Shown in pieces: positions 27,870 to 54,400 of a stretch of DNA of 64,000 bases. Numbering within the stretch: position 1 is the stretch's first letter; the number at the start of each line of letters is the position of its first letter. This DNA is from an uncultured Bacillales bacterium (lineage in GTDB: Bacteria > Bacillota_I > Bacilli_A > RF39 > UBA660). The stretch covers positions 333,484-397,483 of the forward strand of contig CAMNEE010000001.1 of assembly GCA_946536225.1 (NCBI GenBank), written 5' to 3'. The notes below the pieces were generated by a model, which was not told the DNA's origin, made no database searches, and saw nothing but the letters and a program-made list of their open reading frames with translations. Made by a program: the position numbers and the translations under genes.

Positions 27870-28391
27870 ATGAAAAAGAATGGTTTTACATTAGTAGAAT
27901 TACTTGCTGTTTTAGTTATTTTAGGATTATTAATTACACTTGCAGTGCCTAATATATTAGGTGTATCTAAGAATGTTAAAGAAAAGAGTTATCAAACTAA
28001 GATTGAAATAATTGAAAATGCTGCAATTACATATACAAGTGATACAGTTAAAAAGAGTCTTCAAAATCTAAACGATACTGCTATGGTTGGATATTATTGG
28101 ATAAATGTTAGTAAAGATAGTGATGATAATAAGACTGTTAATGCTAAAGCTACAAAGGATGCAACACATATTTATCCAGCTAAAGTTTTTACTGTTCAAG
28201 AACTTGCTGATGCTCGTGAAATTGATTATGATGATGAAGATAACAAAAGTGTAATTAATCCAGTTAATAATAAATCTATTAATGCATGTAATGTTTATGT
28301 TTATTTAAAAAACAATCGTGTATATTCTGTATTTGATAGAGTAAATTGTAATAGTAAAGTTAAGAGTACAGCTGTTAGGCTAGAAAAATAA
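27870..28391 (+). CDS. Type IV prepilin / pseudopilin (class III signal peptide)
   Basis: N-terminus 'MKKNG|FTLVELLAVLVILGLLITLAV' has F+1, E+5 and a hydrophobic helix. 173 aa. Extended -10 TGTTAATAT at 27845-27853. Confidence 0.8.
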   Translation: MKKNGFTLVELLAVLVILGLLITLAVPNILGVSKNVKEKSYQTKIEIIENAAITYTSDTVKKSLQNLNDTAMVGYYWINVSKDSDDNKTVNAKATKDATHIYPAKVFTVQELADAREIDYDDEDNKSVINPVNNKSINACNVYVYLKNNRVYSVFDRVNCNSKVKSTAVRLEK

Positions 28392-35478: not shown

Positions 35479-35622
35479 TGAAGATAATTAAGTGGATAGT
35501 TGCCATTTTGATTGTATTGGGCATTGGATTTGCTATTTATGACTTCATTAGTTCTCAACATTTTGAGATAAATTCTGCTCAAATAATTGTTATCCTATTA
35601 ATGTATATCTTATTAAGTTAAT
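35479..35622 (+). CDS. Small membrane protein (47 aa), not in ORF track
   Basis: RBS AAAGGAGTGG 6 nt before ATG 35479. 'MKIIKWIVAILIVLGIGFAIYDFISS...' has one TM helix. Followed by the terminator at 35644-35668. Confidence 0.35.
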
Positions 35623-35643
35623 AGGTGATATAACACTTTAAAA

Positions 35644-35668
35644 GACATACCAAAAGGTATGTTTTTTA
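35644..35668 (+). terminator. Rho-independent terminator
   Basis: gacatacc-aaaa-ggtatgtt followed by T-run. Confidence 0.6.
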
Positions 35669-35704
35669 TTTTTTTAAAAAAATTTAATTTTTTAAAAAAA
35701 GTAG

Positions 35705-35743
35705 TTGACTTTTTTCTTTGTTATTAATAAAATGTTAATAACA
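35705..35743 (+). promoter_or_regulatory. Sigma-A-type promoter (TTGACT-17-TAAAAT) overlapped by a perfect 9-bp inverted repeat TGTTATTAA-N7-TTAATAACA; candidate NrtR operator 1
   Basis: -35 at 35705-35710 and -10 at 35728-35733. Inverted-repeat arms at 35719-35727 and 35735-35743, with the spacer covering the -10. Confidence 0.5.
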
Positions 35744-35772
35744 GATGAGGAAAACATTTGATTTATTTAAAT

Positions 35773-35789
35773 ATTTGTTATTAACAAAT
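35773..35789 (+). promoter_or_regulatory. Perfect 17-bp palindrome ATTTGTTA-T-TAACAAAT in the 5' leader; candidate operator 2
   Basis: Shares the TTGTTATTAA half-site with the promoter inverted repeat. Lies about 35-50 nt downstream of the predicted TSS. Confidence 0.45.
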
Positions 35790-35815
35790 TGATAATAAGA
35801 AAGAAGGAAGAAAAA

Positions 35816-36178
35816 ATGAAATTAACTTTAAATGAAAATCAAACTAAAGAATTAATCCAAAAATACTATAAGGAAGTAGAAGGGGTTGAAGTTAAAGTAC
35901 ATTTTGATACATATGAAGATTGCCAAAGTACATATGTTCAACCAGTTATATCTAAAGATATAGTAATAGCTGATATTAAAGTAACAGCTACTGAAGAAGT
36001 ATCAAACATGAAGATGACGGAAATATTTAATTTTTATTTACCAGCTGATTATAATTTTAAAAAATCATCTTTCAGTACCTACAGAGATTATGAAAGAATG
36101 GGTGACTATATAGAACGTGTAACTGCTTCAATAGAACTTGAACCTGTTGATCAAAAAACAAGAGGAAAACACATTTAA
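35816..36178 (+). CDS. Hypothetical protein, first gene of the NAD salvage operon
   Basis: RBS AGAAGGAAG 7 nt before ATG 35816. The track start at 35789 is a TTG inside the palindrome. 120 aa. Confidence 0.45.
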   Translation: MKLTLNENQTKELIQKYYKEVEGVEVKVHFDTYEDCQSTYVQPVISKDIVIADIKVTATEEVSNMKMTEIFNFYLPADYNFKKSSFSTYRDYERMGDYIERVTASIELEPVDQKTRGKHI

Positions 36179-36191
36179 TTTTTTATTTAAT

Positions 36192-36208
36192 ATTTGATAT
36201 TAACAAAA
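36192..36208 (+). promoter_or_regulatory. Imperfect copy of the palindrome (ATTTGATA-T-TAACAAAA) within a duplicated ~45-bp leader; candidate operator 3
   Basis: The 36183-36235 segment nearly repeats 35765-35815, including the RBS context ataataagaaagaaggaa. Confidence 0.35.
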
Positions 36209-36235
36209 TGATAATAAGAAAAAGAAGGAATAGTT

Positions 36236-36757
36236 ATGACAGAGGAATTCAAACAAGAAATTATAAAAGCAACAGAGTTTGCATTTGAAGAATCTTATAG
36301 AAAATCTTATGAAAATAGTAAAGCACTTTTAAGACCATATAAATTATTAGTTTTAGAAGCAATAAAAAGCTATAACTTTTTCACTGAAGAGTACGAAACT
36401 GAAACATTATTACAAAAGAAAGAGTTAGTCGGAACTCCAAGAGAAATAAAAATCTATAATGACACTTATGCTGAATTCAATAATCATTATGGAAAGATAT
36501 TTCTAAATTACAATTTAGGGTTTACTAATAGAGAAAGAATAGAACCTGACTTTATAGCAAATAGAACTTTTAAAGGAACAGTAATGAAACTATTCCTTGA
36601 AGAAGAAGGTATTAAAGTAGATTTTAAAGAACACAGTGATGAAGAATATGGTACTGATGAACAAGTTACTATTACATTTGATAATACAATACTACTAGAT
36701 TTAATAAAAAATACAGATGAAGCCGTAAAAAAGAAAAATAAAACTCAAAAGAAATAA
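36236..36757 (+). CDS. Hypothetical protein, second gene of the NAD salvage operon
   Basis: ATG after the duplicated leader. 173 aa. Confidence 0.45.
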   Translation: MTEEFKQEIIKATEFAFEESYRKSYENSKALLRPYKLLVLEAIKSYNFFTEEYETETLLQKKELVGTPREIKIYNDTYAEFNNHYGKIFLNYNLGFTNRERIEPDFIANRTFKGTVMKLFLEEEGIKVDFKEHSDEEYGTDEQVTITFDNTILLDLIKNTDEAVKKKNKTQKK

Positions 36758-36777
36758 TAAGAAAGAAGGAAGTAAAA

Positions 36778-37389
36778 ATGAAAAGAGAAGAAAAATTAAA
36801 AAACTTAAAAGAAATTAAAAATATGTTAGTCGTAATAGACATGGTAAAAGGATTTGTAGATGAAGGAACTTTAGCAGCACCTTCAATTAAAAGAGCAATA
36901 CCTAGACAAATAGAATTACTTGAAGAATATGGTAATGATCAAAATGGTTTAAATGTATTTGTTAGAGATACACATGATGAAGATAGTATTGAATTTAAAA
37001 CATTCCCACCTCATTGTTTAAGAGGTACAGCTGAAGTAGAAGTAACTGAAGAATTAAAACCTTATACAGAAGATGCAGTTGATTTTGAAAAGAATTCAAC
37101 AAACTTTATGTTAGCACCTAAAGTATTAGATTTCTTTAATGAATGTGAAAATCTAGAAAAGTTAGCATTCGTTGGATGCTTATCAGAAGTATGTGTTAAG
37201 AATGCAGCAATAACTGCTAGAAACTACTTCGATCAAGTGAATAGAGATGTAGAAGTTGGAGTATATACTGATGCAATTGATACATTTAATGCACCTGGAC
37301 ATGATGCAGATCTAGTAACAGAACAAGCTATTAAAGATATGGCTGCAAATGGAGTAAAAATTTATGAAAGAAAAAGAGGTAATAAATAA
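36778..37389 (+). CDS. pncA: Nicotinamidase (isochorismatase-family cysteine hydrolase)
   Basis: 'MLVVIDMVKGFVDEG' is the isochorismatase/PncA N-terminal motif. Cys is present in 'FVGCLSEVCV'. Adjacent to pncB. Confidence 0.7.
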   Translation: MKREEKLKNLKEIKNMLVVIDMVKGFVDEGTLAAPSIKRAIPRQIELLEEYGNDQNGLNVFVRDTHDEDSIEFKTFPPHCLRGTAEVEVTEELKPYTEDAVDFEKNSTNFMLAPKVLDFFNECENLEKLAFVGCLSEVCVKNAAITARNYFDQVNRDVEVGVYTDAIDTFNAPGHDADLVTEQAIKDMAANGVKIYERKRGNK

Positions 37390-38855
37390 TGATAACATTT
37401 AATGGACATGAAAGATTAAGTAGAAACTACACACTTATGAGTGATGAATATGAATTTACCATGGCAAATGGTTATTTAAATAACCATAAGGAAAATGAAG
37501 AAGCAGTATTTGATATCTTCTTTAGAAAGGTACCAAATCAAGGTGGATATGCTATCATGGCAGGACTTGATAAGGTAATTCCTTATATTGAAAATTTAAA
37601 ATTTGGTGAACAAGAATTAGATTACTTTAGAAGAAAAGGTTATCCAGAAGATTTTATTAATTACTTAAGAGATTTTAAATTTCATGGAGATATCTATGCA
37701 GTACCTGATGGAACACCAGTATTCCCAAATGAACCAATTGTTACTATTAAAGCTCCTTTAATTGAAGCTCAAATTGTTGAAACAGCACTTCTATCAATAG
37801 TAAACGGTGCTATGGAACATGCTACTGGTGCAAGAAGAATAATTGAAGCTGTACCTGAAGGTGTTGGTGTTATGGAATTTGGTGCAAGAAGAGCAGACGG
37901 AACTGAAGCAGCAATAGATGCATCTATATACGGAATCATGGCTGGATGTGTAGGAACAAGTAATATGTTAGCAGCTGATATGTTAAATATGAAAGGAATG
38001 GGTACTCAAGCTCATAGTTGGATTGAATCATATGAAACTGAGCTTGATGCATTTAAAGCATATGCTAGAACTTATCCAAATAACTGCATCTTACTAGTAG
38101 ATACAATTGATACTTTAAGAAGTGGTATTCCAAATGCAATTAAAACATTTAAATATATGAAAGAAATTGGATTACCTGTTGATCACATTGGTATAAGAAT
38201 TGATTCTGGTGATCTTGCTTATTTATCTAAAGAAACAAGAAAGATGTTAGATGAAGCAGGATTCCCACAAGCAAAAATTTGCTTAAGTAATGGTCTTACT
38301 GCTGAAACAATTGAAACACTTATCAACCAAGGTGCTAAATTTGATAGTTTAGGTGTAGGTGATAATATTTCTAAGCCAGAAGGAAGAATGGGATGTGTTT
38401 ATAAAGAAGTAGCACTTAATACAAATGGTACTTGGGAACCTAAAATTAAACTTAGTAACGATACTATTAAAATTGTTAATCCAGGATTTAAAAAACTTTA
38501 TAGAGCCTATGATAAAGAAACTGGATATGCAATTGCAGATATCATGGATTTATATGATAAAGATATTAAGAAACATGATTTAAATATAGTATCTGTAACA
38601 GATTATTTAAAACAAACTACAATTAATGATTTTGATTTAGTAGAGTTACAAAAACCAATCTTTAAAGATGGAGAACTTGTATATGATGATCCTGATATCA
38701 TGGGAAAAAGAGCATATTGCAATGAGCAAATGAAAACTTTATATCCAGAAGTTAAAAGAACAAATATGCCAAGTGAATACTATGTAGATGGCACAGAAGA
38801 ATATGTTAATTTCAAAAATGATTTAATTCAAAAAACAAGAAAAAGAGTTAAATAG
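37389..38855 (+). CDS. pncB: Nicotinate phosphoribosyltransferase
   Basis: 'YTLMSDEYEFTMANGYL' and 'GTQAHSWIESY'. 488 aa. ATGA overlap with pncA. Confidence 0.8.
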   Translation: MITFNGHERLSRNYTLMSDEYEFTMANGYLNNHKENEEAVFDIFFRKVPNQGGYAIMAGLDKVIPYIENLKFGEQELDYFRRKGYPEDFINYLRDFKFHGDIYAVPDGTPVFPNEPIVTIKAPLIEAQIVETALLSIVNGAMEHATGARRIIEAVPEGVGVMEFGARRADGTEAAIDASIYGIMAGCVGTSNMLAADMLNMKGMGTQAHSWIESYETELDAFKAYARTYPNNCILLVDTIDTLRSGIPNAIKTFKYMKEIGLPVDHIGIRIDSGDLAYLSKETRKMLDEAGFPQAKICLSNGLTAETIETLINQGAKFDSLGVGDNISKPEGRMGCVYKEVALNTNGTWEPKIKLSNDTIKIVNPGFKKLYRAYDKETGYAIADIMDLYDKDIKKHDLNIVSVTDYLKQTTINDFDLVELQKPIFKDGELVYDDPDIMGKRAYCNEQMKTLYPEVKRTNMPSEYYVDGTEEYVNFKNDLIQKTRKRVK

Positions 38856-38867
38856 GAGTGAATATAT

Positions 38868-39512
38868 ATGAGAGCAAAGATAATAGACACATATAATTAT
38901 TGTTCATCAACTAATAATAGAACTAATCTTTATAAGAAAGATACTTATACAGATAATGAACTATTAAAAACATTTGCTATAAGAAATAGATTACTAAACT
39001 TTATTCAAGTAGTAGAACATAGCATTGGACCAATACCATTACTTGAATCAACTGAAATATATGATTATATCGATAGAGATGCTTATCTAGGAATATTCTA
39101 TCTAGAAGGTATAGGTTATATTTCTAAAGGAAACTATGACAGAGATATTGTTGATGTATATCTATATGGTAAGTCTGAAGAAGAAGCATTTAAAACAGCA
39201 ATATATGAATATGTAATGAATGAATCTCATTACTACGAATTGTGGAATAGAGAAGAATTAAATAAAGAGTTTAGTAATAGATTCTTAAATGTTGAAGTTA
39301 ATGAAAATGATTATTTTGGACCTTTTATCTTTGCTGAACATTCACTTCAATTATTAAGAAACTTCTATGGTAATAATATACCAGAAGAATTTATAAATGA
39401 ATTTGAAGAATATGTAAAAGACATAACTCAAATGAATGTTAAGTTTAGTTATGAAACAAATAGATTTGAAAGTATAGAAAAAAATAAAGAAAGGAGAAAA
39501 ATAAATGGATAA
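38868..39512 (+). CDS. Hypothetical protein inside the NAD operon
   Basis: RBS AGGAGTGA. 214 aa. No P-loop or other recognisable motif. Confidence 0.45.
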   Translation: MRAKIIDTYNYCSSTNNRTNLYKKDTYTDNELLKTFAIRNRLLNFIQVVEHSIGPIPLLESTEIYDYIDRDAYLGIFYLEGIGYISKGNYDRDIVDVYLYGKSEEEAFKTAIYEYVMNESHYYELWNREELNKEFSNRFLNVEVNENDYFGPFIFAEHSLQLLRNFYGNNIPEEFINEFEEYVKDITQMNVKFSYETNRFESIEKNKERRKING

Positions 39513-40086
39513 TAAAAAGAAAGAATTAATAGATAAAATAATAGAAGAGTATAAACCTGTTAAAAGAGAAGAAGTTGAACCATCTTTCGTTAAAATAAAA
39601 GCTTATAACTATACTCTTAATAATGGGATGGTTCAAAAAAGAGAACAAATAATAAAAGGATCAAAAGATGGTTCTGCAGTAATAATAGTTCCTTATGTGG
39701 GTAATAACTTACTATTAGTAATTGAACCAAGAGTATTTACTAAAAAGGGTGTATGTGTAGGGTTTCCTGCAGGTTACATAGAAAAAGATGAAGATCCTAA
39801 AGATGCAGCTTTAAGAGAACTAAAAGAAGAAACTGGACTTGTTCCTGAAAGTATTGTTGAAGTAGATGCTTTTTATCAAGATGAAGGATGTTCAAGTGCA
39901 TATAATCATATCTTTATTGCTCATAATTGTAAAAAAGAATATGAACAAGATTTAGATCCAGGAGAATATATTAAATACATGGAATTCACATTAGAAGAAG
40001 CAGAAGAATTAGAGAGTGAAGGATATATTAATAGCTCTAACTGTAAGCTAGCACTAGTTAGAGCTAAAGAGCATAAAAGAAAATGA
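39505..40086 (+). CDS. NUDIX hydrolase (ADP-ribose / NAD-related pyrophosphatase candidate)
   Basis: Nudix box 'GYIEKDEDPKDAALRELKEETGL'. RBS AAAGGAG. Confidence 0.7.
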   Translation: MDNKKKELIDKIIEEYKPVKREEVEPSFVKIKAYNYTLNNGMVQKREQIIKGSKDGSAVIIVPYVGNNLLLVIEPRVFTKKGVCVGFPAGYIEKDEDPKDAALRELKEETGLVPESIVEVDAFYQDEGCSSAYNHIFIAHNCKKEYEQDLDPGEYIKYMEFTLEEAEELESEGYINSSNCKLALVRAKEHKRK

Positions 40087-40574
40087 AATATAAAATAGGC
40101 TTTTATGGAGGTAAGTTTATGCCTTTTCATAAAGGGCATAGATACTGTGTTGAAACAGCAGCAAGTGAATGCGAAAAAGTATATGTAATATTATTCTATG
40201 GTGGTAATGATGAAATAGAAATATTAAAGTATAATCATTCAAAATATTTATCTGTTGAGGAAAGAAAAAAGAAAGTAGTTGAACTAGCAAGTAATTATCC
40301 AAATGCTATACCTGTTTTTATAGATGTAACTGATTGTAAATTAAGTGACGGAAGTGAAGACTGGGATGCAGAAACACCATTAGTAAGAAATGTAGTAGGA
40401 CCTAAGTTAGATGCAGTATATTCAAGTGAAGAGAACTATGGAGAGTATTTCTCTAGAGCATATCCTGAAGCAATACATAGACTTGTGGATGTTAAAAGAA
40501 AACATTATCCAATAAGTGGAACAATGATAAGAAATATGAAAAGAAAAGAGGAAAGAGAAGAATGGATGGTCTAA
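40083..40574 (+). CDS. Stand-alone NadR/NadM-type NMN adenylyltransferase domain (no ribosylnicotinamide kinase domain)
   Basis: 'GFYGGKFMPFHKGH' is the (H/T)xGH nucleotidyltransferase motif in a NadR-like arrangement. 163 aa. ATGA overlap with the Nudix gene and overlap with pnuC. Confidence 0.6.
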   Translation: MKYKIGFYGGKFMPFHKGHRYCVETAASECEKVYVILFYGGNDEIEILKYNHSKYLSVEERKKKVVELASNYPNAIPVFIDVTDCKLSDGSEDWDAETPLVRNVVGPKLDAVYSSEENYGEYFSRAYPEAIHRLVDVKRKHYPISGTMIRNMKRKEEREEWMV

Positions 40575-41320
40575 AATTAAGATTTAATAAAAGAATAGAC
40601 AGTATAAAGAATTTAAAAAATAGTTTTAAAGAATTAAAGTGGTATGAAATTATAATGATAGTAATAATGGTATTTATAGCAGGACTTGCTGTATATAAAG
40701 CAATAACTAATCCAGCAAGTACTACTAATCCATTATGGTTAACAATAGTAAATTTTATTAGTGCGGTATGTGGTATTATTTGTATCTTCTTCTGTGCTAA
40801 AGCAAACGTATCTAATTTTATATTTGGACTTATAAATACAGTGGTATATGCTATATATTTATTGTATTATAAGATATATGGGACATTCTGCTTAGAAGTA
40901 TTATTTTACTTACCTATGAATGTTGCATCATGGATTAACTGGGCAAGACATAGAGATAAAGGATTACCAGAAAAAACAATGGCTAAAAAGTTAACTTTAA
41001 AACAAAGATTAATAAGTGTTGGAGTAGTTGCTATAACTACACTTGTAACTTATAAAATACTTTTATATGTAGGTGGAACAGTAGCATTCTTAGATGCTCT
41101 TACAGTAGCCATTGGTATTGTTGCAACTATATTAGAATTATATAGATATGCTGAACAATATATCTGGTGGATTATTACAGATGTAATTGCCGTTATCATG
41201 TATATAGTTCATTTTGATACAGTATATTTAACAAAGAAAACAATTTATTTAATCATGGCTATAATTGGTTTAAGAAATTGGATGAAGTTAAATAAAGAAA
41301 GGAATAAGAAAAATGTATAA
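40562..41320 (+). CDS. pnuC: Nicotinamide riboside transporter PnuC
   Basis: 252 aa with about 7 TM helices. 'WLTIVNFISAVCGIICIFFCAKANVSNFIFG' and a terminal 'LRNWMK' are PnuC-like. Confidence 0.65.
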   Translation: MDGLKLRFNKRIDSIKNLKNSFKELKWYEIIMIVIMVFIAGLAVYKAITNPASTTNPLWLTIVNFISAVCGIICIFFCAKANVSNFIFGLINTVVYAIYLLYYKIYGTFCLEVLFYLPMNVASWINWARHRDKGLPEKTMAKKLTLKQRLISVGVVAITTLVTYKILLYVGGTVAFLDALTVAIGIVATILELYRYAEQYIWWIITDVIAVIMYIVHFDTVYLTKKTIYLIMAIIGLRNWMKLNKERNKKNV

Positions 41321-42083
41321 TTTTGATGTTAAAAAAGTAAAAGAGGATTTAGTTAAATGGATCCAAGATTGGTTTTACAAAAACGGAGATGGATGTAATG
41401 CTGTAATTGGTATTTCAGGTGGAAAAGACTCAACTGTTACAGCAGCTCTTCTAGTAGAAGCATTAGGTAAAGAAAGAGTAGTTGGAGTATTAATGCCAAA
41501 TGGAGTACAAGCTGACATTGGAGACTCTAAAAAAGTAGTAGAATTTTTAGATATTAAAAATATTACTGTTAATATTAAAGATGCAGTAGAAGCAGAAAAG
41601 AAAAATGTAATTGAAGCATTAAAAACAATTGGTAAGGATGCTTTAACTGATCAAACAATTATTAATTTACCTCCAAGAATTAGAATGACTACTTTATATG
41701 CTGTAAGTCAAACAGTAAATGGAAGAGTAATTAATACATGTAATTTATCAGAAGATTGGGTAGGTTATTCAACTAGATATGGTGATTCAGCAGGAGATGT
41801 ATCTCCACTTGCTAAATTAACTGTTGATGAAGTTAAACAACTTGGTATAGAACTAGGTCTTCCTAGAGAATTAGTTTATAAAACTCCAAGTGATGGTTTA
41901 TGTGGTAAAACTGATGAAGATAATTTAGGATTTACATATGCTACTTTAGATAACTATTTAAGAACTGGTGTATGTGAAGATGAAAATATTAAAAATATAA
42001 TTAATAGAAAACATAAGATTAATAAGTTTAAATTAGAACTTATGCCTTCATTTGAATATGGTGAGGTAAAAGCAAAAGAATAG
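41313..42083 (+). CDS. nadE: NH3-dependent NAD+ synthetase
   Basis: PP-loop 'GISGGKDSTV'. 256 aa. Confidence 0.85.
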   Translation: MYNFDVKKVKEDLVKWIQDWFYKNGDGCNAVIGISGGKDSTVTAALLVEALGKERVVGVLMPNGVQADIGDSKKVVEFLDIKNITVNIKDAVEAEKKNVIEALKTIGKDALTDQTIINLPPRIRMTTLYAVSQTVNGRVINTCNLSEDWVGYSTRYGDSAGDVSPLAKLTVDEVKQLGIELGLPRELVYKTPSDGLCGKTDEDNLGFTYATLDNYLRTGVCEDENIKNIINRKHKINKFKLELMPSFEYGEVKAKE

Positions 42084-42092
42084 GTGATTAAT

Positions 42093-42644
42093 ATGAGATT
42101 AGGAGTTTATATTGGTTCTTTTAATCCAGTTCATAAAGGACATATAAAACTAGTAAACTATTTATTAGAAAATAATTATATAGATAAAGCACTAATAGTA
42201 CCTACATCAGGTTACTGGGATAAAACAAGTTTAGTAGATGTTGAAAAAAGAATTGATATGTTAAGTATTTTTGAAAACGAAACAATAGAAATTGATAGAA
42301 AACATAATAGTATTCTATATACTTATGAACTAATGAGAGAGTTATCAAAAGAATATACTGATGAGTTATATTTAATAATTGGTGCAGATAATATAATTAA
42401 CTTTGATAAATGGAAAAACTATGAAGAATTATTAAAATATAAAATAATAGTAATGAATAGAAATAGTATTGATATTGATTCATATATAACTAAATATAAT
42501 ACTCCTAATTTTATAGTTATTAATGACTTTGATTTTATAGATGTATCATCTACAGAAATTCGTAATAATTTAGATAATGAATATTTAGATAAAAGAGTAT
42601 TAGAATATATTAAAAATAATAATTTATATGAAAAGGAAGACTAA
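42093..42644 (+). CDS. nadD: Nicotinate-nucleotide adenylyltransferase
   Basis: 'GVYIGSFNPVHKGH'. ATG 42093 follows TAGGTGA; the track start at 42084 is GTG. Confidence 0.8.
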   Translation: MRLGVYIGSFNPVHKGHIKLVNYLLENNYIDKALIVPTSGYWDKTSLVDVEKRIDMLSIFENETIEIDRKHNSILYTYELMRELSKEYTDELYLIIGADNIINFDKWKNYEELLKYKIIVMNRNSIDIDSYITKYNTPNFIVINDFDFIDVSSTEIRNNLDNEYLDKRVLEYIKNNNLYEKED

Positions 42645-42645
42645 A

Positions 42646-43113
42646 ATGAAAGATGTTGTAAAAAAATTAAAAGAAAAAGGATTATATATAGCTACTATGG
42701 AATCTTGTACAGGTGGAGGTGTTGCAAATGCAATTACTAATATTCCAGGTGCAAGTGAAGTACTTTTATTTAGTGCTGTAACTTATTCTAATGAATATAA
42801 AATTAAAATGGGTGTTAGTAGTGAGACTATTGATAAATATAGTGTTTACTCTATTGAAGTAGCAAGAGAAATGAGTAAGAGCATAAGTGATTTTGCTCAC
42901 TCTGATATTGGAGTTGGAGTAACTGGAAAAATGGGTGTAGTGGATCCAGCTAATCCATATGGTGATGATAATACTATTTATGTAAGTATTTATGAGAAAA
43001 AGAATAAGCAATATCATGAAATAAAAATGCATACTAAATATGAAGATAGAAAAGATAATAAAGAACTTATTATTAAAAGAATCGAGGAAGAATTATTATC
43101 AATATTAAATTAG
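42646..43113 (+). CDS. pncC: NMN amidohydrolase PncC (CinA C-terminal domain)
   Basis: 'LYIATMESCTGGGVANAITNIPGAS' is the CinA_C/PncC signature. ATG 42646 is 7 nt after AAAGGAAG. Confidence 0.75.
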   Translation: MKDVVKKLKEKGLYIATMESCTGGGVANAITNIPGASEVLLFSAVTYSNEYKIKMGVSSETIDKYSVYSIEVAREMSKSISDFAHSDIGVGVTGKMGVVDPANPYGDDNTIYVSIYEKKNKQYHEIKMHTKYEDRKDNKELIIKRIEEELLSILN

Positions 43114-43148
43114 GACTAGTATGTTATAATTAGAATAGAGGTGTAGTT

Positions 43149-43976
43149 ATGAAAGAATATAAAAGTGAAGAAGAATTCTTAAAAGATTATAATCCTGATG
43201 AATTTAAAAAAGTATCTTTAACAACTGATATTTTAGTTTTAAGTGTATCAAGTAATGATTCAAATAATTATCGTAAAACTGATGATAAGAGTATGAGTGT
43301 ATTACTAGTTAAGAGAGATAATTATCCATTTAAAGATATGTGGTGTTTACCTGGAGGATTTGTTGGATATGATGAAGATTTAGATGAAGCACCTAAAAGA
43401 ATTTTAAAAAGAGAAACCAATTTAGATAATATTTATTTAGAACAATTATATACATTTGGTAATCCAAAAAGAGATCCAAGAATGCGTATTATTTCTACAT
43501 CATATATGTCTTTAATAGATAAGAATATGTTAACTGAGGTTTTAAATAAAAATGCTTCTTGGTTTGATATTACTCTTTTTGAAGAAAAGGATAATATAGT
43601 TACTATTGTCTTAGATAATGGATCTGATACTTTAAAATTTAGTATAAAGAAAGTATTAAAAGAAGAGACAACTGATAGATATTCGTTTGAAGTTGTTGAT
43701 AATAAATCAATAGCATTTGACCACCCACTTGTAATTCTTTCTGGTCTAGAACGTTTAAAAAATAAATTAGAATACACTGATATTGTATTTAATATGATGC
43801 CTAAGTATTTTACTTTAGGAGAACTTCAAAAAGTATATGAAGTAATACTAGGTAAAAAATTACTTGATCCAGCTTTTAGAAGAATTATTAAAGATAAGGT
43901 AAGTAAAACTAATAAAATGAAAACGGGTGAAGGACATAGACCATCTGTATTATTTGAATATAAAAACAATAAGTAG
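43149..43976 (+). CDS. nrtR: NrtR: Nudix-related transcriptional regulator of NAD metabolism (degenerate Nudix domain plus C-terminal winged helix)
   Basis: Nudix box 'GGFVGYDEDLDEAPKRILKRETNL' with the catalytic REx2EE degraded. The C-terminus 'FTLGELQKVYEVILGKKLLDPAFRRII...GHRPSVLFEY' matches the NrtR wHTH pattern. It sits inside the NAD cluster. Confidence 0.7.
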   Translation: MKEYKSEEEFLKDYNPDEFKKVSLTTDILVLSVSSNDSNNYRKTDDKSMSVLLVKRDNYPFKDMWCLPGGFVGYDEDLDEAPKRILKRETNLDNIYLEQLYTFGNPKRDPRMRIISTSYMSLIDKNMLTEVLNKNASWFDITLFEEKDNIVTIVLDNGSDTLKFSIKKVLKEETTDRYSFEVVDNKSIAFDHPLVILSGLERLKNKLEYTDIVFNMMPKYFTLGELQKVYEVILGKKLLDPAFRRIIKDKVSKTNKMKTGEGHRPSVLFEYKNNK

Positions 43977-43983
43977 GTAATAT

Positions 43984-45060
43984 ATGGAAAACTTAAAATT
44001 AATAGTTCTTGATAATATTCAAGAATTTGGTGAAAAAGTAGATAAGCATTTAATGAAGATGCATAAAACTGATAAGAGTTTTATTATTCCTATTACTAGA
44101 GATCGTTTTAATAATGGTGAAGGAAAAATTAAAATAAATGGTACTGTAAGAGATAAAGAAATATATATTCTAAGTGATGTAGGTAACTATGATATTACTT
44201 ATGAAATGCATGGATTTACTCATCATATGGCACCAGATGAACACTTTCAAGATATTAAAAGAGTTATATCTGCTATAAGTGGATATGCATCTAAAATAAC
44301 TTTAGTAATGCCTCTTTTATATGAAGCAAGACAACATAAGAGAAAAGGTAAAGAGTCTCTTGACTGTGCAATTGCTCTTCAAGAGTTAGAAAGATTAGGA
44401 GTAAATCATATTATTACATTTGATGCACATGATCCTAATGTATCTAATTCAATTCCTAATTTACCTTTTGAAAATTTCTATGTTGCTCATGATATATTAG
44501 AGTCTATTGTAAATACTGAAGAAATAGATAATTTACTTGTAATTAGTCCTGATATGGGAGCAATGGAGAGAGCAAGATACTATGCTGATATACTGGGAAC
44601 AGACGTTGGAGTATTTTATAAAAGACGTGATTTATCAAAAGTAGTAAATGGTAAAAATCCAATTGTAGAACATGTTTATTTAGGAAGAGATGTAAAGGGT
44701 ATGAACTGTTTAGTAGTAGATGATATGATTGCCAGTGGTTCATCAATGATAGAAACAGCATCTTACTTAAAAGAAAAGGGTGCAAATAAAGTATATTTGG
44801 TTTCTACATTTGCTCTTTTAACTGAAGGACCTGATAAGTTTATTAAAGCATATGATGAAGGAATATTTGATAAACTATATTCAACTAATCTATCTTATGT
44901 ATCAAATGATATTAAAGAAAAGAACTGGTATGTGGATGTAGATTGTTCAAAGAGGCTTGCAAATATTATTAATAAACTTAATAAAAAAGAATCATTAAAA
45001 ACTATTTTTGATGATGCAAAAGAAGTTTTAAAATTGATTAGTAAAAAGGAAGAAAAATAA
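43984..45060 (+). CDS. prs: Ribose-phosphate pyrophosphokinase (PRPP synthetase)
   Basis: PRPP-binding 'LVVDDMIASGSSM'. 358 aa. Last gene before the terminator. Confidence 0.75.
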   Translation: MENLKLIVLDNIQEFGEKVDKHLMKMHKTDKSFIIPITRDRFNNGEGKIKINGTVRDKEIYILSDVGNYDITYEMHGFTHHMAPDEHFQDIKRVISAISGYASKITLVMPLLYEARQHKRKGKESLDCAIALQELERLGVNHIITFDAHDPNVSNSIPNLPFENFYVAHDILESIVNTEEIDNLLVISPDMGAMERARYYADILGTDVGVFYKRRDLSKVVNGKNPIVEHVYLGRDVKGMNCLVVDDMIASGSSMIETASYLKEKGANKVYLVSTFALLTEGPDKFIKAYDEGIFDKLYSTNLSYVSNDIKEKNWYVDVDCSKRLANIINKLNKKESLKTIFDDAKEVLKLISKKEEK

Positions 45061-45062
45061 AA

Positions 45063-45085
45063 ATACACGATTGTGTATTTTTTTC
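45063..45085 (+). terminator. Rho-independent terminator ending the NAD operon
   Basis: atacac-gatt-gtgtat followed by T7. Confidence 0.7.
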
Positions 45086-45141
45086 TTTACAAAATCTAAA
45101 GTTGTACATATAATAAACCTCAATTGAAGGAGGAAGATGTA

Positions 45142-47511: not shown

Positions 47512-48675
47512 ATGAAGGATAAAAACGGATTTATTGCTACATCAGTTTTGTATGCTTTTTTACTTTGTTTCCTTACTTTATTCTTAGCTTATATGGCTAA
47601 CTATATTCAAAATAAATTATTGATTGATAGGGTTGCTGATTTAGCAAAAGAAGATTTATCAAAATATAATAATACTTATGTTACAGATCTTGCTTTAGGA
47701 GATTATGTAATTTTCGATACAATTGATCCTGAAGGAGCAGATGCTTTATCAGGAGTTAAAGTGTATGATTCTCCAATTAGTCCAGATGCTAGATGGATTC
47801 TATTTAAAATAGAAGGTGGAGATTTAATAGATAAAAATGAGGGTAAGTATGAAGACTCAGTATACTATTTTGTATCTGATTCAACTGCTCAAAAATATCA
47901 ACCTTTAGTTAATTCACTTGCACTTGATAATAGTGGAGCTTATGCACCTATTACAGATAATACTAATTTAAATACTAATACATACAGTCCAAATTTAAAA
48001 AATATTGAAAGAGTTTTAAACAGTCATATATATTATTCATCAAGAAAGTATTGGTCTTCAGCAGAAGCGGATGAAACTGCAAAAACTGCGTATAAATATG
48101 CATTCCCATATACTGCAAATGGTGGAATAACAGATATTAGATATTTAAATGATGATGACTTAAATGAAATATTAAGTTTAAATGATAATGTTGTTGATGC
48201 AATTATGGATCAAGGAGATAAGTTTGTATTCTGGAACACTGGTACTTATTTTGACAGTACAAGACGTGGATTTACGGTTTATAAAAGAGAATATTTAGAA
48301 TTCCTTGGACCAACTGATACTAATAGTGGTACTAATCCAGCCGAAGTTAACAGAATATGTCATACAAGTGGTGCTTCTTCTAATGGAGGTATTATAGACT
48401 TTAGCAATAATAGTGGTAATGACTTAAGTTATGGGCATTTATATTCAGGTATAATTGGACAAAACTTTGTTGATTATTGCTATTATGTAACAAATGATAC
48501 TTTAGGAGATTGCCAAGATAGTAGTAATTATATTTGTAGAAGCAGTAATGGAGAGTATCCTCCTAGATTTGTTGTGGTATTAACTGTTAATAAAGGTAAT
48601 CTTGTTAGAAATGGTAGAGCGGACTCTGGAAATGGAACAGCTACATTACCATATTTATTTACAACGGGGGCATAG
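47512..48675 (+). CDS. Pilin-like protein lacking Glu+5 (PilX/ComGG/GspK-like minor pseudopilin), 387 aa
   Basis: 'MKDKNG|FIATSVLYAFLLCFLTLFLAYMA' is a class III signal-like N-terminus with Ser at +5. First of three co-oriented, tightly spaced genes. Confidence 0.55.
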   Translation: MKDKNGFIATSVLYAFLLCFLTLFLAYMANYIQNKLLIDRVADLAKEDLSKYNNTYVTDLALGDYVIFDTIDPEGADALSGVKVYDSPISPDARWILFKIEGGDLIDKNEGKYEDSVYYFVSDSTAQKYQPLVNSLALDNSGAYAPITDNTNLNTNTYSPNLKNIERVLNSHIYYSSRKYWSSAEADETAKTAYKYAFPYTANGGITDIRYLNDDDLNEILSLNDNVVDAIMDQGDKFVFWNTGTYFDSTRRGFTVYKREYLEFLGPTDTNSGTNPAEVNRICHTSGASSNGGIIDFSNNSGNDLSYGHLYSGIIGQNFVDYCYYVTNDTLGDCQDSSNYICRSSNGEYPPRFVVVLTVNKGNLVRNGRADSGNGTATLPYLFTTGA

Positions 48676-48677
48676 AT

Positions 48678-51464
48678 ATGAGAAAGAAAAATGGATTTGT
48701 TTTAATCGAAACATTAATTGTAGTTTTATTATTAACAGTTACTTTGATGTCACTTTATTCTTCTTTTGCATATTTAGTTAATAAATCAAAAGAAAGAAAT
48801 AATCATGATTCAATAGAAACAATATATAAAACTTACTATGTTAAAAGTTTAATTGATGCAACTTATGCTACAGCTGCAACATCTCGTTTTAAAGAATCAT
48901 TTAGATATTATGCAAGTACATATTCTACAAATGATACTGGATTAAACCCAATATGTAAGGCATTCGATTATGCAGGTAATAAACTTTCTTATTCCAATTA
49001 TATAAGTAATTATGATTCAAGCGATAAGATAGCAAGTTTTATAGTTTGCTCATATGATGAATATAAAACTATTGCATCATATACAGAAGAAGAATTAAAT
49101 GCTAATCCTTCTTTAAAAGAAAAAGCAAAAATTATCAAGAATGATCCATTGTTTAATGCGATTGCTACATATGGAATTGAAAAAATGTATTATATAAATA
49201 CTAATAGATTACAAAAGAGCCAAGGTATGGCTAAAGAAGCTTTAAATGCTGCATTTGATGCATCATCTATTAATTATGTAAATACACTAGATAGTAATGA
49301 AAATAATGACAAACTTATTATTAAATATGAAAAACCATTTGTTTATCCAGCAGGTTTTGATACTACTGATTTAGAGCTACTTATAAGTAAAGAAGCCTCT
49401 CATTCATCTGTATCTATGACAGATGTAAGTAAAAAAGAAGGCTCTTATCCAGTTTTCTTCTATCCTAAAGAAGGAGAAAGAGGAGAAGCGTTCTCGGGTG
49501 GAGATGTCTTCAATGGTGAGTCATTTACAGTTAGCGCCGGATTATTTACAGATTTAGAGGAATTTGGTGGTAAAACAATTATTGGATGGTCAACTAAGTC
49601 AGGTCTTACAGCTGATGAATTAAATACTTGCGTTGAGAGTACAAATAATGGTACTGCAACTGAAGTTCTATGTTATTATGCTAATACAAGTGTAAAAGCA
49701 ACAGATAATAATAGAACACTTTATGCTGTTTGGTGTGGTGATAATACTATTGATGGTATTATGAAATGTAATTCAGGAGTACTTGATAATTTAAAAGAAA
49801 CTGTTGTTGATGGTGTTACAACTTATTATTATGATGGAAAAAATAGTAATAAACCATTAGGAAACTATTATGTTTATACAGAAAGCAAAGTTAATGGTGA
49901 ACCAAAGCTTGTTGGTCAACCATGCTTCCAATTAATGAGTAATTTTGGATCTTCAACAGGGTTTAAAGCTATATATGCTGGTTTATATGATTCTGCCACG
50001 GGATGTGATGTTACAAATAAATCTATAAATAATTCAAGTTATGCTTTTTCTAATGCTACTGGTATTGCAGGTGCTGGATATACATATTATAGAGATAGTA
50101 AAAGAATAGAAGCACCAATGGATTATTGGTCATTTTTAAGATCGTTCAATATTTATAAATATACTGGTAGTATGTATGCTAATTCTTCAGATGCTCCTTT
50201 AAAACTTGGCGAATATGTATATTTATCCAAAGGTTATAAAAATAAGAATGGAGTTTTTTCGTTAGATGATACTGCCGTTAGGGTATTATTTGATGATTAC
50301 TTAACAAATGATTATAAAGATTTAATTAATATGATTTCGTCTCAAGGTTTAAAATATTTTTGCATGGATTCGTCTAAAACTGAGTGTGGTAATGAAATTG
50401 CTCGATTAAATGGTTCTATTACAACCCAATCTACTGGTGGTAAACTAATTATAAAATATAATTATGACTCATTTAAACAACCTTTTGATCCTAACAGCAT
50501 GTCAAAATATAAAAGTCAGTTTTCATCAGAAATAAGATATGATAGTGAAAAAGGACAATATTACTTGCCAGCGGAAACTAGTGTAATATATTCTATGACC
50601 GATGCTCAAACACCAAGTAAAATGTTTAAAAATAGGTATTATTGTACTGGTAAATTAGTATCAGATGATGCTGGTGTTACTAATTTATATTGTAATAATG
50701 GTTATACGTTTATTTTTGGTATGTCTAGTAGTGGTACTGGAACTTCATACTATAGAATAATTTACAGTAATAGTGACTCTCCTGAGTCTACTCCTCCAAA
50801 TTTATTTAATTATACATTTGGTTCGGTTGAACAAAGAACAAAGGATTCAAATGCAAAAGCAGCTATTGATAAATGGTTTGAAAAATATTTTTCTCATTAT
50901 GACGAAATACTTGATACAAAGGCTGTTTATTGTAATGACTTTTCACCTAAAGTATATTCATATGGCAATTCAGAATATAGTTGGTATAATGGTTTTACTA
51001 ATAGTTATTTCTACTATAATGGTTCGACTGATATTTATTCTCCACAAAATTCCGATAAATTTTACTATGGCGCTAATAATGAGAAGAGGTTTAGTCAGTT
51101 TACTGCGTGTGATACTCAATATGCCTATAGTTATAAGGATAGTGATAATCTAGGTAATCATTTGCTTAAATATCCTGTTGGTATGCTTACTGGGCAAGAA
51201 TATTTTGCTGTTGGAGCTTCTACTAAGAATTATTTGAGTGACTCATCAACGTATTTTTTAATGAATCCTTACCGTTATGGTTCGTCAAGTGGTTCTATTT
51301 ATGGACATTTAACTCTTGATAGTCGCGAATATAGTTTAGGTATTGATTATTGGAACACAAATAGTTCTTATTGGTTAAGACCAGTTATATCTATAAAAAT
51401 TGATGCTCCAATTTCAGGTGGTGCAGGAACTGTTAAAGATCCATTTATTTTATATGGTAAATAG
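48678..51464 (+). CDS. Giant modular type IV prepilin-like protein (928 aa)
   Basis: 'MRKKNG|FVLIETLIVVLLLTVTLM' has F+1 and E+5, a canonical prepilin peptidase site. A Ser/Thr/Tyr-rich beta-type extracellular region follows. Confidence 0.7.
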   Translation: MRKKNGFVLIETLIVVLLLTVTLMSLYSSFAYLVNKSKERNNHDSIETIYKTYYVKSLIDATYATAATSRFKESFRYYASTYSTNDTGLNPICKAFDYAGNKLSYSNYISNYDSSDKIASFIVCSYDEYKTIASYTEEELNANPSLKEKAKIIKNDPLFNAIATYGIEKMYYINTNRLQKSQGMAKEALNAAFDASSINYVNTLDSNENNDKLIIKYEKPFVYPAGFDTTDLELLISKEASHSSVSMTDVSKKEGSYPVFFYPKEGERGEAFSGGDVFNGESFTVSAGLFTDLEEFGGKTIIGWSTKSGLTADELNTCVESTNNGTATEVLCYYANTSVKATDNNRTLYAVWCGDNTIDGIMKCNSGVLDNLKETVVDGVTTYYYDGKNSNKPLGNYYVYTESKVNGEPKLVGQPCFQLMSNFGSSTGFKAIYAGLYDSATGCDVTNKSINNSSYAFSNATGIAGAGYTYYRDSKRIEAPMDYWSFLRSFNIYKYTGSMYANSSDAPLKLGEYVYLSKGYKNKNGVFSLDDTAVRVLFDDYLTNDYKDLINMISSQGLKYFCMDSSKTECGNEIARLNGSITTQSTGGKLIIKYNYDSFKQPFDPNSMSKYKSQFSSEIRYDSEKGQYYLPAETSVIYSMTDAQTPSKMFKNRYYCTGKLVSDDAGVTNLYCNNGYTFIFGMSSSGTGTSYYRIIYSNSDSPESTPPNLFNYTFGSVEQRTKDSNAKAAIDKWFEKYFSHYDEILDTKAVYCNDFSPKVYSYGNSEYSWYNGFTNSYFYYNGSTDIYSPQNSDKFYYGANNEKRFSQFTACDTQYAYSYKDSDNLGNHLLKYPVGMLTGQEYFAVGASTKNYLSDSSTYFLMNPYRYGSSSGSIYGHLTLDSREYSLGIDYWNTNSSYWLRPVISIKIDAPISGGAGTVKDPFILYGK

Positions 51465-51478
51465 AAAGGACAAATAAT

Positions 51479-54400
51479 ATGAAAAGAAATTATAATCAAT
51501 CTGGTATGACTATTATTGAAGTATTAGTAAGTGTAATAATTATTTCATTTGTAATGAGCTTATTATTTGTTCTTCTATTACAAGTACAAAATGCTAATAG
51601 TGCTGCTAAGAAGAAATCAAATCTTTTGATTTCTCAAGCAGTAATTACTAAAGCAATTGAGCAAGATATGATTGAAATAGGTGTTAGTGCTGTTTCAGCA
51701 TGTACATATGATGATTTTAATATGTTTAGTAATCAGATTGATGAAAGCGAACCATATGCTTGTGCTAGGTTAGAGTTTAATAAATCATATGATATTAATG
51801 ATTTGGGTTACATCATGGTTTATAAGCAAAATGAAAATGCTTATGATAATGCCACTTGGGTAGTTAAATATGCAAGAGGTTATTATGATAACTGTGTTAT
51901 GGGAAATTCACCAAGTGATGGTAGTTCTTGGATTGAGTCATATAGTGTTGTTCAAAAACTTAATAATGATGTAACACTTGGTAGTTTTGTTGATAGAGTT
52001 ACAGGTAAAACTAGATATGTTTCTCTTAATTATTCAGCAGAATATGATCCTACTGAAAAGTATAGTAGACAAAAAGTTAATTCTGCTAATATAGTTATTC
52101 CTATTGTTGATAGTAATAATTATCACTATGATATAGATTTATCTTTCTCATTTAGATTATATTACCCAGATGAGACTGATCCTTCTAAAGCAAAACAAAG
52201 AATAGATTTTGTTTGCGATGACGAGGGAGTTGATTGTGTATGTACTTCTTCTAAGGATGAAAATTGTAATAAAACATATTCATCAAATCTTCCTGGAAGA
52301 ACAAAAAGTGAAACAGATAAGACATATAATTACACTTGTACTGCAACTAAGAAGTCTGTTTCTACTTCAATGGGAATTAACAAAGATTTCTTGACATTAA
52401 GTAATGTTAATAAGGCAGGTATTGTGCCAGATAATGTTAGAAAAATTACGTTTAGTAATTCGTTGGACTCTAATGGGTTTGGTGGATATGGTATAGATGT
52501 ATCTCTTGCTCAAAACAAGACATCTATTTTATATTACGAATTTGACGATAATACAGATACATACGATATAATGATTGGTCAATCTGGTGGCGTTACTGTT
52601 GCTGGTAAGAGCATGGCTAACATGTTTGCTGATTGTATAAGGTTAGAATCCATTAATTTTAAAAATTTTAGTTCCAATGGAATTGAAGATATGAAGAATT
52701 TATTTAAAAATTGTGAAAAACTTACTAATGATGGTATAGACGGATTTTTAAATCTAAATTTCGATGGTGTAAGAAAAATGTCTGCTATGTTTAAGGGATG
52801 TAAACGTATTACTGTATCTCCATTTAGACAATCATCTGGTGATGCATTTAATTTAAGTAGTTTAGTGGATGCTTTTGAAATGTTTTCTAATAGTGGATTA
52901 ACTGAGTTTATTTATTATAAGGATTTGTGGTGTGATAATGTTACATCATTCTTACGTTTGCTTAGTGATTCAAATATACAAACTGTTGTAATTGGAGATA
53001 TTTCTCGTAGTGTTTCTATGAATAATTTGAATTCTATGGCGCATATGCTTGATAATTGTAATAGTTTGACAACATTTAAACTTATTAATTGTAATTTTCC
53101 AGCTTTAAATACTATTGAAAGAATTTGTTTTCATGTAAGCTCATCCAATGTTTCGGTTATGAGTGCCTTAGGAACATATAATTCTGAAACACATGTATAT
53201 TCTGGTGGTGGAATGCAATTTGTAAATTTATACACTCCTAATTTGGAAAATCTTTCTTATGCATTTTACTATGAAAAAATTAATTCAAGTTTGAATATTA
53301 GTAATTGGACGATTGTAAATAATTATAATGCTGACCATATGTTTTTTGGAGCAGGTTTAACAGCGTTTTCATTTGGCGATGATGCGTTTGGAACAGAAGG
53401 ATATGGTGGTCCATACAATGGCTCTTATATGTTTTATAATTGTAGTATAAAGAAATTAATTAATAATGATACAAGAGAATCGGTATTAATTCATGCTAAT
53501 TATATGTTTTATTATAATTATTTGGATACTATTGATGGTGGTTTTTATTTACCAAATGTAGTTGATTGCACTTCTATGTTTAGTACAGCAGGACCTTCTT
53601 CCAAGGCTGTATTTAACTATATTAAAGAAGGATCTTTATCCAAGTGTGAAAAGTTTACTAATATGTTTTTGGCTACACGTTATCAGGTTATTTATTTAGA
53701 CAATATTAATAGTGAAGTAACCGAAGGTACTGTTTCATGTGTTAATATGTTTGCTGCTGGTAGTTCGAGTGGTAAAAACACTTTGAAAAATGTTTATATG
53801 AGAAATGCTAATTTTAAAACGAGAGTTTCTATGTCTTCAATGTTTGCATATAATTGGTCACTTAGATTTGTTGACTTTGACTATGTTAAAGGGGACTGGG
53901 ATAATAACAAGTATTATGACGGAACATATACATATTATGGAATGGATACTCCTGATACTAGTGATGATACAAATATTGATCATATAGGAAATTTTGAAAA
54001 TTTCTTTGATAAAGATTCCTCGGCGGCTATACCGGGTTCTATGGAAAAAATGTTTTTTAACTGTTCTTCTTTAAGGGGACTTCCAGACAATTTCTTTAGC
54101 ACGATGAATATAAAGAGTGTATCTAACTGTACCGCCATGTTTGAATATGCTGGTGTTGAAGCAATTTTAGGTGGTATAAGAAATAAATTTGGAGTATTAT
54201 TAGATTTTGATTTTAATTCAAATCCTGTTTTACCTTATATGTTTCATGGTGTTGATAATTTCTCTTATATTAAATTACCAAAATTAACTAAGTCTACTAA
54301 TCTCGTAGATATGTTTAATAATGTTGGAGGTAATAGTGATCGTATAACAGATTTAACCATTGATTTATCTTCTTTAACAACTAATCTTGATACTTTTATT

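Follow-up and report, generated by a model that had tools for sequence, protein, structure and literature searches.

Within a 64,000-nt stretch of DNA from an uncultured gut bacterium of the Bacilli with low GC content (the whole stretch is referred to as the window), we identified a chromosomal block of nicotinamide adenine dinucleotide (NAD) salvage and recycling genes that encodes a member of the NrtR repressor family and that we hold, with good confidence, to be controlled by it. Thirteen open reading frames (ORFs), all on the forward strand and spaced by −17 to +57 nt, occupy positions 35816 to 45060. An earlier interpretation made from the letters and translations alone (the sequence-only reading) had proposed a closely packed, co-directional thirteen-gene unit for NAD salvage and recycling with its own NrtR, and this was borne out: all ten of its family assignments were reproduced with Pfam and NCBIfam, and the motifs it named are present in the translations. 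Its account of the pathway also stands, covering the Preiss–Handler route, uptake through PnuC, deamidation of nicotinamide mononucleotide (NMN) and supply of phosphoribosyl pyrophosphate (PRPP). The three genes that it left without a family (g1, g2 and g5) remain so, with no match in Pfam or NCBIfam and no significant match in PHROG. Every gene of the block, these three included, has a ratio of nonsynonymous to synonymous substitution rates (dN/dS) below 0.5 against the corresponding genes of two close relatives, L026 and L027, and all thirteen are therefore real coding genes (L-numbers denote other loci used for comparison).

Composition of the block

The genes of the block, in order, are as follows.

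35816–36178, forward strand: g1, 120-aa protein, first gene of the block (ATG at 35816; the longest ORF starts at TTG 35789)
36236–36757, forward strand: g2, 173-aa orphan protein (4 homologues in 5.8 billion proteins; dN/dS 0.23)
36778–37389, forward strand: pncA, nicotinamidase, nicotinamide to nicotinate (PF00857, E 1.2e-19)
37389–38855, forward strand: pncB, nicotinate phosphoribosyltransferase (NAPRTase; NF006695 equivalog, 558.3 bits against a cut-off of 469)
38868–39512, forward strand: g5, 214-aa protein (8-nt overlap with g6; AF2 pLDDT 89.7)
39505–40086, forward strand: g6, Nudix hydrolase, ADP-ribose pyrophosphatase-like (PF00293)
40083–40574, forward strand: g7, NadR-type NMN adenylyltransferase (NMNAT) domain only (TIGR01526 domain match, phrog_3462)
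40562–41320, forward strand: pnuC, nicotinamide riboside transporter (TIGR01528, 129.9 bits against 42.45; PF04973)
41313–42083, forward strand: nadE, single-domain NAD synthetase (TIGR00552, 171 bits against 63.65; PF02540; SGGKDS motif)
42084–42644, forward strand: nadD, nicotinate-nucleotide adenylyltransferase (TIGR00482, 117.1 bits against 112.45; GSFNPVHKGH motif)
42628–43113, forward strand: pncC, NMN amidohydrolase of the CinA C-terminal type (TIGR00199, 92 bits against 68.9; PF02464)
43149–43976, forward strand: nrtR, Nudix-related transcriptional repressor (PF00293 and PF21906, the NrtR winged-helix domain)
43984–45060, forward strand: prs, ribose-phosphate pyrophosphokinase of the PRK06827 subfamily (NF005299, 462 bits against 327; TIGR01251, 189 against 113)

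PncA has an isochorismatase fold with an Asp-Lys-Cys triad and a DxH...H metal site, and its motifs VIDMV, FEKN, SEVCV and RDTHD...PPH align with pyrazinamidase/nicotinamidase structures in the PDB; it matches no NCBIfam equivalog, so nicotinamide is its presumed substrate. In PncB, all three NAPRTase domains are present (PF17767, PF04095 and PF17956). The Nudix box of g6 is perfect (G-YIEKD-E-DPKDAAL-RELKEETGL), and its best PDB matches are ADP-ribose pyrophosphatases aligned over the full length (E 1e-17), with scores below every NCBIfam equivalog cut-off (NudE, 59.9 against 169). The 163-aa g7 product carries the motifs GGKFMPFHKGH (HxGH) and ISGTMIRN (ISxTxxR), and over residues 4–152 it aligns to the adenylyltransferase half of both 9x6f and 8x7f; it matches only residues 9–155 of the 357-aa NadR-like protein 9x6f, and the ribosylnicotinamide kinase (AAA_28) domain is absent from it (TIGR01526, 48.5 against 341). 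An AAA_28-like kinase sequence was not found in the window. NadE lacks a glutaminase domain and is thus presumably ammonia-dependent. Likelier start codons are ATG 42093 for nadD, as called in L001, and ATG 42646 for pncC. The pair formed by a kinase-less NadR-type NMNAT and PnuC (40083–41320 in the window) appears, judged by gene spacing, to recur in L054, L071, L122 and L139, and was noted in L098 as well.

Two intrinsic terminators frame the block.

35639–35668, forward strand: terminator of the preceding gene, marking the 5′ boundary (13-bp stem and T-run; folding free energy (dG) −14.3, z −5.55)
45059–45088, forward strand: terminator closing the block (10-bp stem, 45059–45068 paired with 45073–45082, 4-nt loop, T-run)

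The closing terminator, previously placed at 45063–45085, is real: it has a dG of −8.4 and a z of −4.23, and none of 200 shuffled sequences folded better. Outside the block the window is ordinary chromosome, with rpsB, tsf, a class A penicillin-binding protein gene, recU, der, rimM, trmD, lon, mutS, rplU, rpmA and a gene for a GyrA/ParC-family topoisomerase subunit. Positions 35601–45100 are identical to a 696-kb scaffold of an infant-gut metagenome. The GC content of the window is about 27%, its GC skew is strongly positive, and TGA serves as a stop codon. In line with the sequence-only reading, no homologue of the de novo genes nadA, nadB or nadC was found among the window ORFs scanned; 64 kb of housekeeping genes does not, however, allow NAD auxotrophy to be deduced.

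A 23-bp operator marks the block and retrieves NAD genes from other genomes

Upstream of g1 and g2 we located a promoter, three copies of a 23-bp imperfect palindrome and a hairpin.

35705–35733, forward strand: main promoter P1 (−35 TTGACT at 35705–35710, 17-nt spacer, −10 TAAAAT at 35728–35733; 10/12 matches)
35720–35742, forward strand: operator O1, GTTATTAATAAAATGTTAATAAC, overlapping the −10 box (31.3 bits)
35742–35760, forward strand: short hairpin CAGATG-AGGAAAA-CATTTG at the predicted mRNA 5′ end, right after O1
35777–35799, forward strand: operator O2, GTTATTAACAAATTGATAATAAG, directly 5′ of the g1 ribosome-binding site (29.6 bits)
36196–36218, forward strand: operator O3, GATATTAACAAAATGATAATAAG, before g2 (30.6 bits)

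The palindrome, GTTATTAAYAAAATGWTAATAAC, has the architecture GTTATTAA-N7-TTAATAAC and occurs three times within 500 bp (at 35720, 35777 and 36196), these being its only copies in the window. A position weight matrix (PWM) built from nine sites, which gave the bit scores above, places the three window sites at about 30–31 bits, the next best unrelated match in the 64 kb scoring below 15 bits. O1 is conserved in L007, L009, L024, L026 and L027, a counterpart of O3 stands before pncA in L007, L009 and L010, and sites left out of the training set turned up at equivalent positions in L010 and L024. O2 and O3 lie in a directly repeated leader of about 40 bp, found before g1 and again before g2, which by score is itself promoter-like. 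With three operators, two of them in such a leader, the single upstream promoter proposed in the sequence-only reading is probably too simple a description.

A motif-only scan of a metagenome collection returned at least 120 loci, and NAD-salvage genes stand beside the site in 87 of the 120 listed; these genes are mostly only 30–70% identical to those of the window. The first gene 3′ of the listed sites was most commonly pncA (51 sites), which in the window overlaps pncB. A further 25 sites are followed first by some other NAD-salvage gene or by one resembling g1 or g2, among them pncB (6 sites), the NMNAT–pnuC pair (5), g1-like genes (4), g2-like genes (3), nadD (2) and pncC, prs, nrtR and nadE (1 each). 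NrtR itself (46–81% identical) is also encoded in 19 of the listed loci. The motif is directional because it includes the TAAAAT −10 box, and of 113 distinct sites collected from other loci, 27 have TTGAC 15 nt upstream; together these elements fit the repressor-over-promoter arrangement described for NrtR, whose sites overlap promoters and which, at the level of the family, is released from DNA by ADP-ribose as ligand (PMC2330246).

The window NrtR has a Nudix-like domain (PF00293, residues 47–130) followed by the NrtR winged helix (PF21906, residues 213–270; 57.4 bits against a cut-off of 27). Its PDB matches include AraR 5bs6 (1e-29, both domains aligned), Shewanella NrtR 3gz5 (1e-23) and 2fml (residues 9–272), and its Nudix box is degenerate, the catalytic glutamates having been lost. 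By these criteria of sequence it is a family member at the domain level and not a curated equivalog, and we infer that it binds the 23-bp operator.

The hairpin following O1 has equivalents elsewhere: when sequences were folded individually, a hairpin of at least 4 bp directly followed 22 of 28 distinct promoter-type sites of other loci (mean z −2.67), with stem sequences that vary. RNAalifold gave no consensus hairpin on a MAFFT alignment of these leaders because the stems do not align. The hairpin may act as a 5′ stabiliser or, weakly, as an attenuator. A riboswitch in the leader was considered and rejected, as no Rfam family reached the gathering threshold and nothing meaningful appeared at E<5.

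Radical-SAM genes (PF04055) lie directly 3′ of the same 23-bp operator in L033, L101, L105, L076, L142, L089, L044 and L099, and are divergent from nrtR in L076, L142 and L089. There are none in the window. They are a candidate, unexpected member of the regulon.

Proposed mechanism

On the basis of these observations, we propose a cycle in which NAD-consuming reactions would release nicotinamide and ADP-ribose and in which ADP-ribose, by analogy with characterised NrtR proteins, would free NrtR from its operators and lift repression. PncA would then convert nicotinamide to nicotinate, while the Nudix enzyme g6, probably acting together with g5, would split ADP-ribose into AMP and ribose 5-phosphate, from which Prs would make PRPP. 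PncB would join PRPP and nicotinate to form nicotinate mononucleotide (NaMN), and NadD and NadE would complete NAD. PncC would channel NMN into this line as well, and PnuC with the NadR-type NMNAT would provide an extra entry for the riboside or NMN. As g6 would also remove ADP-ribose, the presumed inducer, the cycle would include negative feedback. In addition to read-through from P1, nrtR–prs would be transcribed from a conserved promoter of its own. The enzyme families, the order of the genes and the operators with their link to NAD genes are observed; the effector, repression, the ends of the transcripts and every activity are inferred.

Several points weigh against this scheme. Three of the thirteen genes, g1, g2 and g5, are without an assigned role. 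NrtR, at 151.7 bits, falls under the cut-off of 400 of the NCBIfam equivalog NF050029. Whereas the site of most NrtR groups is a 21-bp palindrome with a GT-N7-AC core (divergent groups are mentioned too; PMC2330246), the outer GT...AC of the operator described here are 19 nt apart, so it is by position and co-occurrence that the operator is assigned to NrtR. PnuC has no nicotinamide riboside kinase beside it in the block, a point that the sequence-only reading had overlooked, and the PnuC branch is incomplete as annotated. Finally, nadD and nadE, though universal steps, are placed under the repressor, and full repression would be impossible if these were the only copies.

Transcription of nrtR and prs

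The sequence-only reading had regarded internal terminators or promoters as capable of splitting the cluster into unrelated units. A terminator scan found no terminator-like site within the block, but one candidate internal promoter emerged.

43122–43130, forward strand: perfect extended −10 element, TGTTATAAT, in the 35-nt non-coding spacer before nrtR; a candidate for an internal promoter serving nrtR–prs

This element is followed by a conserved ribosome-binding site, AGAGGTG, and is kept in 4/4 close relatives (L007, L009, L010 and L027) and also in L135, L090, L063 and L031, whose NrtR proteins are 67–81% identical to that of the window; all eight loci span 67–93%. An operator-like site just 5′ of it is present in L027, L007 and L010, and absent in the window and L009. 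Such conservation suggests that nrtR–prs probably has its own transcript besides P1 read-through, possibly a constitutive one, and it further weakens the claim of a single promoter.

It is conceivable that the block consists of two nested units, in which P1 and the operators drive g1 to pncC, nrtR–prs is expressed mainly from its own constitutive promoter, and prs is the general PRPP synthetase of the cell that merely adjoins the cassette. Conservation of the extended −10 element across the eight loci speaks for this arrangement, as does the lack, in the window, of the operator-like site that precedes it in three relatives. In addition, the cassettes of L007, L009 and L010 terminate right after nrtR and have no prs, the window contains no second prs, and PRK06827-type prs genes occur in six human faecal contigs without NAD neighbours. 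On the other side, no terminator separates pncC, nrtR and prs, and prs begins only 7 nt past nrtR, so read-through from P1 is expected. Moreover, prs genes of the same subfamily (55–64% identical) lie inside operator-bearing NAD clusters retrieved by the motif (L031, L059, L063, L107, L109 and L123), close behind an operator in L059 and L063, and Proteobacteria are already known to have prs paralogues under NrtR control. We consider the nested arrangement a serious contender that falls somewhat short of an even chance. The inclusion of prs in the unit, as first proposed, thus holds in part: the gene is missing from the cassette of the nearest other lineages and recurs in distant operator-bearing clusters, which, judged from gene content, makes its link to this regulon recurrent and not universal.

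The three genes without a family

The first gene, g1, is hypervariable, being 40% identical to its L027 copy while neighbouring genes are 93–98% identical. It has only 6 close homologues and a dN/dS of 0.24–0.46, and its AF2 model (pLDDT 84) has no fold match in the PDB. A hidden Markov model (HMM) search found g1-like small proteins in nine further loci, some in tandem and often just 3′ of the operator. g2 is missing from the cassette in L007 and L009, and its position relative to g1 varies, the order in GCA_016648615 being g2-g1-g1-pncA; in L060, L127 and L148, genes resembling g2 come after the operator. The idea that g1 and g2 are paralogues was dropped: a BLASTP match over 45 aa (E 0.004) was accompanied by an hhalign probability of only 4%. 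Upstream of the g2 homologue and operators of L024, positions 44–1168 encode a 374-aa AAA_28-domain protein containing EIERKYL, a string that we take to resemble the ExExK signature of CYTH domains.

Nucleotide comparison of 35701–36300 with L027 gave 106 differences per 300 nt in g1, beside a near-identical g2–pncA stretch (3 per 300), and across 39001–39600 the 3′ half of g5 was the most divergent spot relative to L026, a locus of the same species. These divergence hot spots in g1 and g5 suggest recombination within the block.

For g5, the structural model had no Foldseek match in the PDB at E<1, and a profile search at full sensitivity returned 104 cluster representatives, most of which stand alone and measure about 200 aa. 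In one protein, P0102, a g5-like domain is fused to a Nudix domain that shares 45% identity with g6 from end to end; in L028, on a single contig, its context is pncA-pncB-[g5::nudix]-nadE. In L136, a g5-like gene lies between pncB and the Nudix gene. The fusion, known from that one contig, speaks for g5 acting together with the putative ADP-ribose pyrophosphatase, and on this comparative ground g5 is a probable partner of g6. Other members of the g5 family adjoin unrelated genes (GT2, truB and uvrC) and give no functional clue.

We tentatively suggest, as a rather unlikely extension of these findings, that g1, g2 and g5 are new players in NAD homeostasis. Here, the ADP-ribose pyrophosphatase would have g5 as its partner or regulatory subunit, and g5 would tune the NrtR signal through the level of ADP-ribose, or else one of g1, g2 and g5 would be the missing riboside-trapping enzyme, while g1 would be a hypervariable protein in leader position with a role shaped by recombination.

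Comparative anatomy and mobility

The same 13 genes occupy the same place in L026 (same species, 98.7% nucleotide identity) and in L027 (91%). L007, L009 (a metagenome-assembled genome of a goat-rumen member of the Bacilli) and L010 carry, in other genomic contexts, an 11-gene cassette with the order g1-pncA-pncB-g5-nudix-NMNAT-pnuC-nadE-nadD-pncC-nrtR, although the L010 sequence starts inside pncA, so that g1 is not checkable there. An intrinsic terminator follows nrtR directly in all three, which are without g2 and prs. Relative to this cassette, the window has g2 added, lacks the terminator after nrtR and has prs in its place 7 nt downstream.

Differences of this kind could be read as the mark of an island that moves horizontally and serves mainly to survive NAD depletion by toxins or abortive-infection systems, with g1, g2 and g5 as fast-evolving counter-measures. 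The cassette contexts of L007, L009 and L010 do differ from the window, g1 exists as allelic types only 33–42% identical that are swapped between close relatives, and g5 has a divergent tract within a single species. We nevertheless regard this as improbable. The differing contexts come from different species, the dN/dS values are those of purifying selection, Pfam annotation of the flanks in the window, L001 and L007 revealed no integrase, transposase or phage gene, and no relatives of NrtR or g5 were found in viral contigs. On this last result a phage origin of the block was also rejected.

Identity of Prs

Phage prs-like genes beside Nampt-like genes encode ADP-ribose pyrophosphokinases (Adps), whose homologues have lost the C-terminal α11–α12 region. 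In the window Prs, by comparison, the KRR catalytic loop, the DDMIxxGxS ribose-5-phosphate loop (DDMIASGSS) and the C-terminal module align with E. coli PRPS 7xmu, the alignment extending through residue 343 of 358; for a comparison phage pair from Vibrio phage D69, the alignment stops at residue 312, and KAR stands where the window protein has KRR. Together with the HMM scores, the retained module led us to reject an Adps identity, and the window Prs would be canonical-like by these alignments. The notion that Prs is an Adps-like enzyme and that a PncB-like enzyme joins ADP-ribose pyrophosphate with nicotinate, in a deamidated, bacterial form of the short-cut that phages take with NARP1, is highly improbable: it could draw on the precedent of phage ‘prs’ genes that turned out to be Adps, on the sensing of ADP-ribose shown elsewhere for the NrtR family, on the presence of prs and a phosphoribosyltransferase in one unit and on an identity to a phage Adps-like protein of 27%, not below the 25% to canonical prsA, but Prs exceeds the cut-offs of bacterial Prs models and scores higher by HMM to E. 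coli PRPS than to the phage family, the KRR loop and α11–α12 region are kept, the transferase is an equivalog-level NAPRTase and not of the Namat/Nampt type, ribose 5-phosphate would be available from the putative ADP-ribose pyrophosphatase of the block, and sister cassettes have no prs. A phage origin of Prs was likewise set aside, the ‘phage’ matches being unverified faecal contigs without NAD genes.

Relation to known systems

The block resembles the NrtR regulons of Firmicutes (PMC2330246) in that the repressor is encoded in the cluster it controls, the targets include pncA-pncB-nadD-nadE, and palindromic sites lie over the promoter or between promoter and start codon. It differs in having 13 genes, nrtR near the 3′ end, three operators and a 23-bp site without the GT-N7-AC spacing, and it adds PnuC, a kinase-less NMNAT, PncC, a putative ADP-ribose pyrophosphatase, Prs and the three genes without a family. 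As in the prs-nadV-nrtR operons of Shewanella and Acinetobacter (PMC2330246), Prs, NrtR and a pyridine phosphoribosyltransferase share one unit; here, however, the transferase is PncB (nicotinate) and not NadV (nicotinamide), Prs belongs to the PRK06827 subfamily, and the attachment of prs is confined to this species group and some distant relatives. The nadR-pnuC-nrtR unit of Streptococcus (PMC2330246) likewise pairs PnuC with a NadR-type adenylyltransferase in the same unit as NrtR, but the NadR-type protein of the window is without the ribosylnicotinamide kinase domain.

The phage pathways NARP1 (Adps and Namat) and NARP3 (PnuC and a NadR-like protein) also rebuild NAD from ADP-ribose, nicotinamide or imported riboside, and share with the block the Prs-like, PnuC and NadR-like NMNAT superfamilies. 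Unlike NARP1, the window system is chromosomal, its Prs is canonical-like with the C-terminal module, its transferase is an NAPRTase and not Namat, and ADP-ribose is presumably hydrolysed first. The NadR-like protein of NARP3 has kinase and adenylyltransferase activities, whereas the window NMNAT has no kinase domain and is not phage-encoded. In contrast to both, the whole block would be under a repressor.

Other features of the window

A match to the L21 ribosomal leader of Rfam (RF00559, 40.9 bits) precedes rplU at 59729–59800, and positions 17115–18065 encode a 316-aa ribosomal protein S2 with a C-terminal Rho_N domain. Downstream of lon, at 47512–54562, are three large proteins (387, 928 and 1027 aa) with almost no family matches, the sole one being a DUF285 ‘Mycoplasma’ repeat in the last. 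Three proteins with histidine-kinase ATPase and response-regulator receiver domains are encoded at 1–1560, 12005–14464 and 14497–16932, two of them adjacent paralogues. A pilus or competence apparatus is suggested by a type II/IV secretion ATPase (21294–23285, reverse strand) and by a prepilin N-terminal methylation motif in the protein encoded at 27870–28391 (forward strand).

Implications

Nothing here overturns existing knowledge of NrtR systems; the block is of a known, NrtR-controlled kind, unusually complete and with three extra genes of unknown function. The concrete questions it raises concern g5, fused in another NAD cluster to a putative ADP-ribose pyrophosphatase, the hypervariable g1, the kinase-less PnuC/NMNAT pair and the radical-SAM genes under the operator. 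As NAD clusters can be pulled out of metagenomes with nothing but the operator motif, this NrtR clade has a regulon that is directly mappable, and in barely studied gut bacteria nearly every step of NAD salvage and recycling is found in one unit together with its regulator.

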